A program made the translations under genes and the position numbers. The notes below the pieces were generated by a model, which searched no databases, was not told where the DNA came from, and saw nothing but the letters and a program-made list of their open reading frames with translations. A DNA stretch of 64,000 nucleotides from Sphingobacteriales bacterium (GTDB lineage Bacteria > Bacteroidota > Bacteroidia > Chitinophagales > Chitinophagaceae): contig JADJGB010000002.1 of assembly GCA_016708305.1 (NCBI GenBank), positions 65,330-129,329 on the forward strand, read 5' to 3'. Of this stretch, positions 29,378 to 36,993 are shown piece by piece. Numbering within the stretch: position 1 is the stretch's first letter; every line of letters begins with the position of its first letter.

Positions 29378-30359
<982 letters not shown>

Positions 30360-30460: not shown

Positions 30461-30508
30461 TAAGGTTAAGGTTGAGGTTAAGGTTGAGATTGAGATTGAG
30501 GTTGAGAT
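30461..30508. repeat. Intergenic hexamer microsatellite T(A/G)AG(G/A)T x8
   Basis: taaggt taaggt tgaggt taaggt tgagat tgagat tgaggt tgagat. Confidence 0.8.
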
Positions 30509-30518
30509 GGGAAAAACA

Positions 30519-31274
30519 TTACGCTGATTTTGATTTTGATACTAAACGTATGATAATCAATATAGAAAAAGATAAAATTGCCGGTAAAGCGATAAACAGC
30601 ATACCTAATCCGGGTGTGTTTTTACCGGTTTTAGGATTATAGTTATAACAGGAGAACAGGTTACTTTGTCCCGGCAAGCGATAAGTTGGAGAAAAAACAT
30701 TATTTATACTGTTAATCAATAGACCAATATCTTTGCTGTTTCGCAAACCCAACAGTTTTTTGGTAACAAATCCCTGAGAATTGACACCAACCAGAAGCGC
30801 ATCATGATCAAACTGCAAGGTTTGTTCATACCAAACAGGATTAAAATTTACGGATGAAATAAGACGGGAGATACTATCGGTAACAGCAAATTTCCAGTTG
30901 CCTTCATGCTGTAGATTGAAACGGGTAGCCATATTTTCCATATCTTTCACAGAATCGCGCGGATCAAAACTAATAACTAATACATTATATTTTTTATTGC
31001 CAATATTTGGTGCAAATTGTAAACTTTCCTTTAATTGAATTATAAGCGGTGCACAAATTCCGGAACATCTTGTAAAAACGAAGGCTACCACCAACGGATT
31101 TTGGGCAGCCAACTGATGCATTGAGACATGGTCTCCGCTAATGATTTGTAATGGTGCATTATAAATCACTTCATTAATATTCGTCTCCTGCCAACCTGCG
31201 GCAGGCTGGGCTACTGCATCTACAAGGAAGGAGCAGACAAAAATCAGGAACGATGTAAGACCATATTTATGCAT
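30519..31274 (-). CDS. SCO/SenC family copper chaperone
   Basis: FTRCSGICA (CxxxC), SFDPRD, FDHD; C-terminal TM helix; third gene of the operon. Confidence 0.8.
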   Translation of the reverse strand: MHKYGLTSFLIFVCSFLVDAVAQPAAGWQETNINEVIYNAPLQIISGDHVSMHQLAAQNPLVVAFVFTRCSGICAPLIIQLKESLQFAPNIGNKKYNVLVISFDPRDSVKDMENMATRFNLQHEGNWKFAVTDSISRLISSVNFNPVWYEQTLQFDHDALLVGVNSQGFVTKKLLGLRNSKDIGLLINSINNVFSPTYRLPGQSNLFSCYNYNPKTGKNTPGLGMLFIALPAILSFSILIIIRLVSKSKSA

Positions 31275-32686
31275 CTTTTAAAAATACTCGAAACGAAAAG
31301 AAAAATGGCTATCAGATAAACCGTAGCAAATACTGCACCTAAGGTAGCTAATAATTTTGCAGAGGTAAACTCAACCGGGTAACTACTGTATCTTCTGGGA
31401 ACGGATTCTGCACCTGCCACATAAAAAGCTGCCAGAAAGCCTATTCCGCCCAGTAACAGGAATGAAAGTTTGAGCGAAGAAAGTCTCTCCGGCCCTTTTC
31501 TTTTGGAATATTCCACAGAAAACCAATGGAAAAAGCCAAGGCTAAACAATACATTACCCATAGCATTGTAAGAATGAAAGTGAGCGGGCACCCAAAGTGT
31601 ATTATGCAGTAAAAAGTTATTTGAAATAGTAGCATCAATAACGGCGCCTACTCCACCTATAACCCAGCCCGCTATTCCGATAAAGAACAAAAGATTAGAC
31701 AATGACCATTTTATTTTGGTACGATAAACCGCCACAATAACACTAAAAACCGTTACTCCGGCTGAAGGTAAACTGGCAAGGTAAGAAGCAAGCTGGCCTA
31801 CAATTTGCAAACCCTCCGGCTGCACAAAGTCCATATATAAATGGTGGAAAAATGCCAGCAATACAAAAAACAGCGTGAGGTTCCAGGCAATGGCCACATA
31901 CCAGGTGGTTTTCCACTTTGGTCTGCCACTGATTTCGGGAAACAGTTCGTAAATAATAGCCAACCCCAGATAAAGCATTTCATTGGCAATAGTATGGCCA
32001 AAAAAATAGGTAAGGTTTTTAATCAGCAAGGCATCATTTACAAATGCGCCATGTGAATAATACTCAGCAAAAAGAAGCACCAACAAAACCACTGCAGCAA
32101 TAAGGCAGGCGAGAACTCCCAATAGACTGATCATTGAAATCAATATAAAAGGCGGTGTTTCCACTTCCGGATTCTTATTTCTGAAATGCTGCCATGCAAA
32201 AACCTGCGAAATCGAATATTTTTTCAACAATGCGGTCATCAGACTGAGCACCCATACCAGCCATCCCACACCTAATACCGCCAATGCCCATAGGAACATA
32301 GGGGTAGCCCATGCGCTCCATGCAATCTTAAACGGCAGCGGATACAGAAATGTCCATCCAGCATGAAAATCGCCAATCAAGGTGGATACCCATAGCATCA
32401 CAACGCCAATCACCGTCATCACGAGCGCAAAGGTATTTGCCCTATAACTTGTTTTTACATATCGCTCCATGATGAAATTAACACCTGCCATACCTGCTAC
32501 AAACCAAATCCCAATCATCGTAATACCATGTATCGTCATGTCGGCATAAAAGGTGCCGGGATCCAAATGAACTGCACCACCCTGATTAAGCCGCATAATA
32601 ATTCCTAAAATGATACTTAACACAAACAACACCAACACAGCAATAATCCAAATAGCCGTATTCTTTTTAATTCCTTTTGCTTCCAT
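31244..32686 (-). CDS. Heme-copper oxidase superfamily subunit I, B-family-derived, probable NO reductase (sNOR-like)
   Basis: TIHG, GWTFLYP, FFGHTIANE (no Tyr at His+4), YE, FFHHL, HNT...AHFH, PRRY. Confidence 0.8.
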   Translation of the reverse strand: MEAKGIKKNTAIWIIAVLVLFVLSIILGIIMRLNQGGAVHLDPGTFYADMTIHGITMIGIWFVAGMAGVNFIMERYVKTSYRANTFALVMTVIGVVMLWVSTLIGDFHAGWTFLYPLPFKIAWSAWATPMFLWALAVLGVGWLVWVLSLMTALLKKYSISQVFAWQHFRNKNPEVETPPFILISMISLLGVLACLIAAVVLLVLLFAEYYSHGAFVNDALLIKNLTYFFGHTIANEMLYLGLAIIYELFPEISGRPKWKTTWYVAIAWNLTLFFVLLAFFHHLYMDFVQPEGLQIVGQLASYLASLPSAGVTVFSVIVAVYRTKIKWSLSNLLFFIGIAGWVIGGVGAVIDATISNNFLLHNTLWVPAHFHSYNAMGNVLFSLGFFHWFSVEYSKRKGPERLSSLKLSFLLLGGIGFLAAFYVAGAESVPRRYSSYPVEFTSAKLLATLGAVFATVYLIAIFLFVSSIFKRCINMVLHRS

Positions 32687-32694
32687 GATTTCTT

Positions 32695-33315
32695 TTATTT
32701 AACAGTGAAAGTTGTTTGCATTACCTGATGCGCCATACCGCAATATTCTAAACAATGAACCGTATAGGTACCCGGCTCTTCAAATTTCCAACGTAGTAAA
32801 TTTACATATCCCGGCATCGCCTGAGTTTGTGCCACAATCTGCTTGGAAGGGCTGTAAATTGCAAATCCATGATTTACGTCTAAACTGGTAACTCTGAACT
32901 CAACTAACTGATTAGCAGGAAGTTCAATAGTCATTTCGCCTTCGGGCTTATCGGGGTTAATTGCTTTATAAGACATTGTAAAAAAGAATTGTCCTGCTGC
33001 CACATGCACTACTTTTGCCGGCTGCTCTTTTGCAAAAAGATAGTAAGGAGAGCGCGGAATTGTGATAAGTGCAAAAATGCCCAGACAAACAAATAAGATA
33101 AGAAGGAACCAGAATCTTTTTTGCAGGGGATTGGCCATACCCTTTAATTCATCATCCGACTTTTTGGATGACAGATACACTATGATAAAAACCAGCGCTA
33201 TTACAGCAGCCAGTACCAAAAAGAGCAATAAGAGTGCGTATTGCATATATCTGATTTTTAGCTTATTTAATCGTTTGCGGTTTAAGTCGTTTAATAAAAC
33301 AGGGCAAACCTGCAA
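32695..33315 (-). CDS. Heme-copper oxidase subunit II with CuA site
   Basis: SLDVNHGF and HCLEYCGMAHQVM CuA ligands; N-terminal TM helices; start probably at the second Met (33243). Confidence 0.88.
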   Translation of the reverse strand: MQVCPVLLNDLNRKRLNKLKIRYMQYALLLLFLVLAAVIALVFIIVYLSSKKSDDELKGMANPLQKRFWFLLILFVCLGIFALITIPRSPYYLFAKEQPAKVVHVAAGQFFFTMSYKAINPDKPEGEMTIELPANQLVEFRVTSLDVNHGFAIYSPSKQIVAQTQAMPGYVNLLRWKFEEPGTYTVHCLEYCGMAHQVMQTTFTVK

Positions 33316-34750: not shown

Positions 34751-36993
34751 ATGAAGAATGAAACGTCAGTAAGTCAATATACAGAAGCTGTTTCTCATTT
34801 AGTAACCATTCTTAATAAGTTATATCACGAAAATAGCCTTAACTTTTCAGATGTACATGACAATATTGAATGGGATGATGCCAAAAAGAGGGCACTGTTA
34901 GAAAAGTATCATATCAATATTAAAGAACACAGGCAATATGCAGACATTGTACAAGAAGGGGGTGGTGTACATGGTATCGCACTTGCCGGCTACACCTATA
35001 TTTTAGAAAAGATGGGCATTTCTTTTTTAAATTGCGCAGGTACCAGCGCAGGAGCAATAAATACTATGTTGCTGAATTGTGTATATTCCAGACGGGATGC
35101 CATTTTGATGGATAAGAATGAAGAATTTATTGACCGGTGTTATGAAACAAGGTCTGAAAAAATTCTGGATTATTTATCTAAAAAAAATTTGAGCGAACTG
35201 GTGGACGGTCATATAACCTGGCAGAATCTTATTCTAAAACTATTCTCAAAAAAAGATAAAACTCCGCTAATAGATAAAATTAAGCGAAAGGCAAAAATTG
35301 CTGCCTGGAGTTTCATTATTTCCTTTAGCCTACTTATAATTTCTGCAATTGGTGTTGGCGTATCATTAACCGAAAAAGCCGGATGGATGCTATGGGTAAA
35401 TGGTATCCTAATTACCTCGGTAATTGTTATAGCCCTTTCATTTGGTTTGATAATAATAAATGGCATGTCGCTGCGCTTTCTTTATTTTAACAGTGAAAAA
35501 ATGGGTATTAACCCTGGCGAAAATTTTAAGCAGTGGATGACAGATGTAATGAATGATAATGGCATCAGGAATGTTTTGGACCTTCAGAACAAAATGCTGA
35601 ATGAAAACAGGCTGTTGAACCTAAAATATGATGTATTTATCCCGGCGTGGGTAGGGTGTCCAAACCACACAGTATTTTGGAAAGTGACAGAGAAAAATTA
35701 TCAAATATCACACAGGAAATCTCTGATAAAAGTAAAATCAATTTATTGAACCAAACTGAAGCAAGAGACGAATTCAAAATCAAAGTCGATTCTCCGTCAG
35801 ATAATCAGGAAGGCAAAGAAAAAATTGAAAATATTTCCCTTAAAAGAATTGATTTCTCCACAGAAAGTAAAGCTTTAAAATACCCAAAAGAAATACAGGC
35901 TTCATCAAATTATATTGATTTTAAAGAGTTAAGCAAAGACTTAATTGATAATCAAACAAAGGGAATAGTAGGTTTCCATATTAAAGAAAACGGAGCAATT
36001 GGAAAAGACCAGAATTATATTGACGAGCTTCTTAATAAAATCATCAGCGGCACAACCGACTTTAACCAGACTAACTGGAAGGATTTAAAAACGATTAACG
36101 ACAAAATAATTGATTCCAATTTAAATCCATTAAATAACAATCACAAATTAATAGACCTGTTAGTTACTAAATTTTATTCCTTCACAAAAAAAGTTGTTAA
36201 TGCCAAAAAGAATAAGTTTACACAACAGCTTGTAGTGGTAGCGGCAGATATTACCAATCAAATTAAAGTCGAATTTCCGGGAATGCACGAATTTTACTGG
36301 GGAGATGACTACACCATTTCGCCTGCTGAATACATCAGGGCTTCCATGTCTATCCCGTTTTTTTTCAGTCCGTATAAGGTAACCCTTCCCAACACGCAAC
36401 TCATCAAAATAAACGAAATCTGGCGAAACAAAATGAACGCCTATAAAAACTTTACCCCTCAAAACAATGAAGTGCTTTTTGTGGACGGAGGAATGTTGTC
36501 CAATTTCCCAATAAATGTATTTTATGACAACATCTCCTATTGCATTCCTACCCGTCCAACAATTGGCATAAAACTTGAGTTTGATAGCGATGATTTTTAT
36601 AAACTGGTTGATAATGAATTTAAGCTTTCCTTATCCATGCTATCTACTATGCGTTTCTTTTATGACAGAGATTTTATGCAAAAGCACAACGATTTTAAGA
36701 GAACAGTGCGGAGTGTGGATACAGGAAGTATCAGTTGGCTCAATTTTAACCCGACTGAAAATGAAAAACTGGAATTATTTTACAGAGGCGCACTGACTGC
36801 CACTATTTTTCTGGCGGGTGAGAATCTAACAAATGAGCAAAAAATGAATTATTGGAAAAAGCCAAAACAGATTTTGGAATTGAGGACTTTAAAACCGAAG
36901 ATTTGGTATATCCTGACATTATGTTTAATTGGGAAAATTATAAATTCGAAAGGGCAATGGCCGAAATCTATAAAAACCTTAGCCCCAAACTAA
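34751..36993 (+). CDS. Large patatin-like phospholipase (~750 aa) with internal TM hairpin, one frameshift near 35645
   Basis: QEGGGVHG (GxGxxG), AGTSAGA (GxSxG), IRASMSIPFFF, VDGGMLSNFP (DGG). Confidence 0.82.

Follow-up and report, generated by a model that had tools for sequence, protein, structure and literature searches.

The ammonia oxidizers Nitrosomonas europaea and Nitrosomonas eutropha reportedly possess a nitric oxide (NO) reductase of the sNOR type, made up of NorS and NorY together with SenC and orf1, which is said to have been described by Stein et al. in 2007 and by Hemp and Gennis in 2008. In addition, the "qCuANOR type II" cluster of Bacillus azotoformans and Geobacillus (cbaB2-cbaA2-senC2-cbaC2; PMC3475470) was counted as an sNOR by Murali et al. 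(2024; PMC11214002). In B. azotoformans, this cluster comprises a 1482-bp gene for a 12-helix subunit I with a Tyr-to-Asn exchange, a two-helix subunit II, and an adjacent SenC (PMC3475470). A further system, the bNOR (qCuANOR) of B. azotoformans, has been purified and shown to reduce NO, and is reported as not closely related to sNOR. Here, we analyzed a 64,000-nucleotide stretch (the window) of contig JADJGB010000002.1, positions 65,330 to 129,329, from the genome of a Sphingobacteriales bacterium (GCA_016708305.1). It hosts a three-gene operon that we assign, at a probability of about 0.72, to the sNOR family of heme-copper oxidoreductases (NorS-NorY-SenC type), a branch that derives from the B family, with predicted NO reductase activity.

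The operon consists of three co-directional open reading frames (ORFs) on the minus strand (window 30519-33315), located where an earlier sequence-only reading had placed them:

32695..33315 or 32695..33246, minus strand: subunit II (NorS-like), two N-terminal transmembrane helices and a CuA cupredoxin domain
31244..32686, minus strand: subunit I (NorY-like), 480 amino acids, 12 transmembrane helices, COX1
30519..31274, minus strand: SenC/SCO-like copper chaperone, 251 amino acids, a signal or anchor at the N-terminus and a transmembrane helix at the C-terminus

Subunit I retains the six canonical His residues (H53, H231, H281, H282, H369, and H371), which are invariant in the alignments of its relatives; H53 and H371 are the low-spin heme ligands, and all three B-site His are present. 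HMMER aligned "FFGHTIANEMLY" of subunit I with "FFGHPEVYILIL" of mammalian COX1, so that GHTIAN of helix VI stands against GHPEVY of the solved cytochrome oxidases and Asn235 occupies the position of the cross-linked Tyr (His+4, i.e., four residues after the first metal-B His). The H-P-x-V-Y cross-link motif of B-family O2 reductases does not occur in subunit I. A cross-link of the C-family type was also rejected, as the 17 residues that precede H281 in helix VII ("WNLTLFFVLLAFFHH") contain no Tyr, and the sole Tyr on this helix, Y263, lies at its far end. On helix VI, Y246 matches a K-path residue of B-family oxidases, and the Glu of the "YE" pair is E247. The sequence-only reading had claimed the six ligands, GHTIANE with Asn at His+4 in place of H-P-x-V-Y, the Tyr-less helix VII, and the downstream Glu, and all of these are upheld by our alignments. 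The AlphaFold2 model of subunit I (pLDDT 92.4, pTM 0.92) has twelve long helices; a Foldseek comparison with the PDB matched A- and B-family subunit I about equally (probability 1.0, TM-score ~0.8), a fold match without power to separate the two families.

The accompanying genes are those expected of a CuA enzyme with its own copper chaperone, as the same reading had proposed. In Pfam, subunit I matched COX1 (1.7e-57) and subunit II matched COX2 (3.5e-08), both above the curated cut-offs, and the third gene gave a weak match to SCO1-SenC (4.7e-06; 27 bits vs a cut-off of 22.8 bits). NCBIfam returned generic oxidase models only, at scores far under their cut-offs, including TIGR02866 CoxB for subunit II (1.6e-23). 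Subunit II has hydrophobic segments at residues 28-46 and 68-86 and, at residues 188-199, the complete CuA motif CLEYCGMAHQVM (C-L-E-Y-C-G-M-A-H-Q-V-M, i.e., Cx3Cx3Hx2M), with the upstream CuA His in "VNHGF". Read from the TTG at 33315, its ORF has 206 amino acids; since the homologues in 59 related loci have ~183, the true start is probably the ATG at 33246, which gives 183 amino acids. The SenC-like protein retains the copper triad of SCO chaperones (Cys70-x3-Cys74 and His157), each of these residues being conserved to 90% or more across 52 homologues, among them the SenC from an ammonia oxidizer. In addition, the senC-like gene overlaps the end of the subunit I gene by 31 nucleotides, as it does in most of the loci nearest to ours, which suggests that the two genes are translationally coupled. 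Scans for sigma-70-type promoters and for terminators performed no better than on shuffled sequences.

A comparison with the described systems revealed both likeness and distance. The operon shares with the ammonia-oxidizer sNOR a CuA subunit II with two transmembrane helices, a subunit I of ~480-500 amino acids with six His and Asn at His+4, a Tyr-Glu pair near the end of helix VI, a SenC gene immediately downstream, and a place in the same Asn-type clade (see below). However, identity is only 33% for subunit I and 35% for subunit II (34.8% with the NorS of an amoA-bearing genome), the orf1 membrane protein is missing, an additional invariant Glu236 stands beside the Asn, the divergent SenC-like protein carries an anchor at its C-terminus, and the host is a heterotrophic member of Bacteroidota in which nirK was not found. 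Similarly, the qCuANOR type II cluster has the short 12-helix subunit I, the two-helix subunit II, the Tyr-to-Asn exchange, the adjacent SenC, and the same clade membership, whereas it is only ~33% identical, includes an extra membrane protein of 4-5 helices, and lacks Glu at His+5. With bNOR, the operon has in common an active site of three His and Asn and a CuA subunit (PMC11214002), but the 13-helix subunit I of bNOR has ~568 amino acids, is accompanied by a 46-amino-acid third subunit, and is confined to Bacillales (PMC3475470). Given the 480 amino acids of subunit I, the 12 helices of its model, and its Bacteroidota host, bNOR was rejected by description; moreover, there was no bNOR-like sequence among the 150 best relatives of subunit I.

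Other families were considered in the same manner. The B-family ba3 oxidase of Thermus thermophilus resembles the operon in overall fold, in its CuA-bearing subunit II, and in the Tyr of helix VI that corresponds to our Y246, but it has GHPVVY with the cross-linked Tyr, and the Tyr-type relatives fall into separate clades. The eNOR of Rhodothermus marinus, a characterized NO reductase, is also B-family-derived, CuA-dependent, and Tyr-less; it was rejected because our subunit I has Asn at His+4 and a His/His low-spin heme. We also rejected gNOR (in which Asp takes the place of one active-site His and subunit II has no CuA ligands) given the three B-site His and the complete CuA motif, and nNOR (Glu ligand as in cNOR, His/Met low-spin heme) given Asn at His+4 and the H53 and H371 ligands.

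Searching 1.84 billion cluster representatives yielded 699 relatives of subunit I. The closest database protein is 97% identical and originates from a metagenome-assembled genome (MAG) of Niabella sp., followed by more than 100 proteins at 69-76% identity from MAGs of Bacteroidota and Ignavibacteriota. Almost all of the named close homologues carry the NCBI label "cbb3-type cytochrome c oxidase subunit I", which is the kind of automated oxidase label that the sequence-only reading had foreseen. Full-length relatives down to ~27% identity all have G-H-x-x-x-N in the alignment, N235 being invariant in 220 relatives, and the next, more distant layer shows G-H-P-V-V-Y, the motif of B-family oxygen reductases. 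Some Asn-type representatives (P0136, P0138, P0150, and P0319) are ~200 amino acids longer (~665-684 amino acids), and one member of a long cluster is annotated as oxidase subunit 3, which suggests a fusion of subunit I with a subunit-III-like domain. Two full-length relatives, P0188 (470 amino acids) and P0225 (476 amino acids), have no metal-B His, with "LEEFLR" and "LEIFLR" in helix VI and no helix VII His pair; these are possibly non-catalytic heme-copper homologues.

To place the operon among these enzymes, we used three indirect family anchors, chosen by amoA content and source names. More specifically, amoA was sought in 400 sampled genomes from the order of a Lautropia MAG (Burkholderiales), and among the five best amoA-positive genomes, which were searched for the enzyme, one carries a strong match. 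Its locus consists of a multicopper oxidase, an unknown gene, a COX2-type gene (174 amino acids, with CuA motif), a COX1-type gene (496 amino acids, with "GHVVIN" and "AVYELLP"), SenC (209 amino acids), a 189-amino-acid membrane protein, and, on the opposite strand, a formate/nitrite transporter, and since this order equals the ammonia-oxidizer arrangement (PMC6967387 and genome papers), we identified it as norS-norY-senC-orf1. The second anchor, P0132, represents a cluster from Candidatus Methylomirabilis/NC10, an organism credited with an sNOR by Murali et al. (PMC11214002). The third, P0140 (493 amino acids) from Cytobacillus, was taken as the Bacillaceae anchor because it fits the description of the B. 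azotoformans type II cluster (PMC3475470).

In a maximum-likelihood tree (IQ-TREE, 46 sequences, 502 columns, LG+C20+F+G4 by PMSF), the Asn-type enzymes form one clade (support 100/99), apart from two Tyr-type B-family groups and the A-family outgroups. Within it, the ammonia-oxidizer NorY groups with the Cytobacillus protein (100/100), the NC10 sequences form a second group (100/98), and 20 sequences including our subunit I form a third (100/99); the branching order among the three is not resolved by the tree. Our protein lies inside a Bacteroidota/Ignavibacteriota sub-branch (100/100), with one Ignavibacteriota and one Ferruginibacter sequence as its nearest neighbors, and a quick tree of 58 sequences gave the same picture. 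A phylogeny had been proposed as a check by the sequence-only reading, and in this one, built without curated bNOR, gNOR, or nNOR references, the protein clusters with the Asn-type clade and not with O2 reductases.

We then compared the 80 closest related loci from a scan of contigs, nitrifiers not being among them. The order subunit II, subunit I, SenC-like gene is kept in essentially all 80, in hosts from Bacteroidota, Ignavibacteriota, Acidobacteriota, Pseudomonadota, Planctomycetota, Actinomycetota, and other phyla, with the SenC-like gene immediately behind subunit I in most of them, and no fourth gene is conserved in these loci. One of the loci, L030, belongs to a cultured isolate, Gelidibacter japonicus Bio7-1. 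Regarding orf1, the host genome gave no match by tblastn or blastp (best E 8.6), and the related loci gave one weak match only; orf1 is an accessory of ammonia-oxidizer clusters and not part of the sNOR family as defined by subunit I. The norS-norY-senC arrangement that the sequence-only reading had recognized stands as to motif, gene order, and phylogeny, with the qualification that the fourth gene of the ammonia-oxidizer cluster is absent here. Collectively, membership of the sNOR family is well supported by the motif at the active site, the presence of a CuA subunit and a neighboring SenC-like gene, the conservation of their order, and the phylogeny with ammonia-oxidizer NorY.

An Rrf2-family regulator adjoins the operon in several relatives (L014, L028, L029, L033, L042, L054, L032, L050, and L088), lying directly upstream in several close-clade loci, often together with DUF1858-DUF2249 proteins, an unknown 428-amino-acid protein, a 107-amino-acid protein, and proteins of the carboxymuconolactone decarboxylase family. 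DUF1858 is also the N-terminal domain of iron-center repair proteins. The set looks like a nitrosative-stress module and is a candidate NO-stress regulon. The host genome has an Rrf2/DUF2249/428-amino-acid module on another contig (C1:300469-305705), ~20 kb from nrfA. In addition, a 12-bp palindrome, GACAAnnTTGTC (GAC(A/T)AnnTTGTC), was found in 7 of 42 upstream regions, whereas its frequency across the genome would predict ~0.2; three of these seven are close relatives. It is located ~90 nucleotides upstream of subunit II in L009, L010, L013, L042, and L050, and ~200 nucleotides upstream in L015 and L028; neither the window nor the 600 nucleotides upstream of nosZ in five carrier genomes contain it.

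We next compared the gene content of carrier genomes with that of other genomes. Clade II nosZ scored above the cut-off in 35 of 40 close-clade carrier genomes, compared with 78 of 251 genomes in an even sample of the same class (Bacteroidia), and nirK did so in 15 of 40 compared with 15 of 251, although the counts lack phylogenetic independence and most carriers are MAGs. Among the 250 other genomes of the class sample, 4 have the operon (one copy being 43% identical and one a stop-interrupted fragment), and three of these 4 have nosZ; the operon is missing from all six genomes compared from the host's family. Given this scarcity and the enrichment of nosZ and nirK, the enzyme is patchily distributed and associated with N-oxide respiration.

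The host genome is a 4.08-Mb MAG of 10 contigs, 90% complete. It encodes an intact A-family aa3 oxidase ("GHPEVY"), a cbb3 CcoN ("WWYGHNAV") split by stops, and an nrfA split by one stop; cytochrome bd was not found in it. It also hosts a second Tyr-less operon (C8:~1590768-1594260; locus L002: 442-1365, 1540-3111, and 3175-3936) with a CuA subunit II of 307 amino acids, a subunit I of 523 amino acids, and a SenC-like gene. This paralogue differs from our subunit I in having Gln at His+4, i.e., the Tyr position ("GHSSQQ"), and Lys for the second low-spin heme His ("GHFK"), and it lies on a long branch outside the Asn clade. Since some eNORs have His/Lys ligation of the low-spin heme (Murali et al., PMC11214002), the Lys ligand led us to call the paralogue eNOR-like.

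We infer that the sNOR-type enzyme reduces NO because the Tyr is lost, because bNOR and eNOR are likewise Tyr-less and reduce NO (eNOR being unable to reduce O2; PMC11214002), because the active-site residues of sNOR equal those of bNOR (PMC11214002), and because the carriers are enriched in nosZ and nirK. Several points weigh against this inference. Members of the sNOR family have never been purified or assayed (PMC11214002, PMC6967387), and the sNOR genes of N. europaea rose 2.7- to 10.8-fold under O2 limitation, for which the authors suggested a high-affinity oxidase (PMC6967387). The metal of the B site may be Cu or Fe, and the reference set of the tree and the relatedness of the carriers, both described above, limit what phylogeny and co-occurrence can contribute. 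In the window, the operon is surrounded by housekeeping genes only, and its flanks have nothing in common with those of the 80 related loci. Finally, nirK, nirS, and nosZ were found neither in the window, as the sequence-only reading had stated, nor in the rest of the 90% complete genome, where that reading had advised a search for nirK and nosZ.

The N. europaea data lead directly to an alternative, namely a high-affinity terminal O2 reductase that lacks the canonical Tyr. The B-family derivation of the protein, its CuA subunit and copper chaperone, and the split cbb3 gene of the host would all suit such an enzyme, as would Tyr284, a conserved residue two positions past the His pair, though this Tyr is also present in Tyr-type B-family relatives. 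However, the characterized O2-reducing heme-copper enzymes all have the cross-linked Tyr, which eNOR, unable to reduce O2, lacks just as our protein does, and Asn235 is invariant throughout the Asn clade. Moreover, the host has its intact aa3 oxidase, the split cbb3 is one among several split genes and looks like an assembly indel error, and the carriers are enriched in nitrogen-oxide genes. Taken together, these data make O2 reduction quite improbable.

If the operon encodes an NO reductase, a c-type cytochrome in the periplasm would hand electrons to CuA, from which they would reach the low-spin heme and then the high-spin heme/metal-B center, where two NO would be converted to nitrous oxide (N2O). 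Being a two-electron reduction, this step would have no need of a Tyr radical, unlike the four-electron reduction of O2. Copper for CuA, and possibly also for the B site, may be loaded by the SenC-like protein. A polar path with the invariant Y246-E247 may carry protons from the cytoplasm, and such uptake would make the enzyme electrogenic. Support for electron donation by cytochrome c comes from loci of a sister group at 45% identity (L056, L057, L073, L082, and L085), in which subunit II (318-365 amino acids, and often ~330-365 in the group) has a CxxCH heme c motif before the CuA domain and is thus a cytochrome c-CuA fusion, as in caa3 oxidases. Given that the host has nrfA and a second Tyr-less enzyme but no detected nirK, nirS, or nosZ, the likeliest role of the operon is the removal of NO that arises from neighbors or from the host's own nitrite ammonification, rather than a step in full denitrification.

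Our data also show an Asn-Glu signature specific to the sub-branch. N235, E236, Y246, and E247 are invariant in all 159 homologues with at least 57% identity, so these active-site features are not due to chance. At the position of E236, 38 of 43 sequences with 40-57% identity have Ile, Leu, Val, or Met, and Glu is not among the five commonest residues there in 18 more distant sequences. By contrast with E236, E247 is widely shared, i.e., the position is Glu or Asp in 41 of the same 43 sequences and the Glu is common to ammonia-oxidizer NorY; no equivalent is present in the NC10 group. Murali et al. (2024; PMC11214002) described a conserved Glu in the K-channel region of sNOR, at a position unlike that of other heme-copper oxidases; their text names no position, and E247 is a candidate for this proton-path residue.

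We also considered whether E236 could set the Bacteroidota/Ignavibacteriota sub-branch functionally apart from other sNORs, for instance with a carboxylate that tunes or helps ligate a B-site iron or that delivers protons, and we regard this as rather unlikely. On this view, the Asn-Glu sub-branch would represent an electrogenic, cytochrome-c-dependent NO reductase that scavenges external NO and is used both by N2O reducers with clade II nosZ and by non-denitrifiers such as this host. However, the periodicity of a helix would turn His+5 by ~100 degrees relative to His+4, and E236 is therefore more likely to be a second-shell residue than a metal ligand. A different proposal is that the Asn-Glu pair marks another chemistry of a small oxidant or of NO, e.g., NO dismutation or the reduction of peroxide, nitrite, or N2O. 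E236 would be a natural marker, being invariant in the 159 homologues and mostly replaced by hydrophobic residues elsewhere; the superfamily has repeatedly evolved new chemistries, such as NOD and a putative N2O reductase (PMC11214002), and the function of sNOR was assigned by sequence alone. On the other hand, neither sequence nor context indicates a specific alternative substrate, the active site otherwise matches that of other sNORs and of bNORs, and by its helical geometry His+5 would not face the metal center as His+4 does. We therefore consider another chemistry unlikely, and NO reduction remains our preferred reading of the operon.

Split genes are a recurrent feature of the host genome, i.e., trxB, ccoN, nrfA, the 428-amino-acid gene, the DUF2249 gene, and a patatin gene, which suggests assembly indel errors rather than pseudogenes. 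Two of them lie in the window. Just downstream of the operon, trxB (29378-30359, minus strand) has a frameshift near 30150-30170, with the N-terminal 70 amino acids (GSGPAG motif) in one frame and the remaining 263 in another. The overlapping ORFs 34751-35749 and 35647-36993 lie in different frames and match the first and second halves of Pfam Patatin; the region 34751-36993 probably represents a single patatin gene interrupted by a frameshift. So many interrupted genes, one of them next door, could mean that the operon is itself a decaying or non-functional oxidase remnant. Yet its three ORFs are all intact, the 159 homologues show no variation at its ligands or at dozens of other positions, its structure is conserved across phyla, and subunit I gives a confident model, which leaves a remnant as barely credible.

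The remaining features of the surroundings are as follows. The genes flanking the operon in the window encode dihydroneopterin aldolase, an M23 peptidase, and bactofilin, along with the split trxB and a patatin operon. In addition, a hexanucleotide tandem repeat, (AGGTTG) x 7.3, occupies positions 30463-30506, where a spacer separates the SenC-like gene from trxB.

The operon is an ordinary further member of the sNOR family, one NO-reductase family proposed from sequence alone, and what is known of the family is unchanged by it. Its host is a new carrier, in which nirK, nirS, and nosZ were not found but an eNOR-like enzyme and nrfA occur; this fits a stand-alone trait of NO detoxification or scavenging. 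Since automated annotation names sNORs as cytochrome oxidases, the N2O-producing potential of Bacteroidota in sludge, sediments, and soils would be undercounted.

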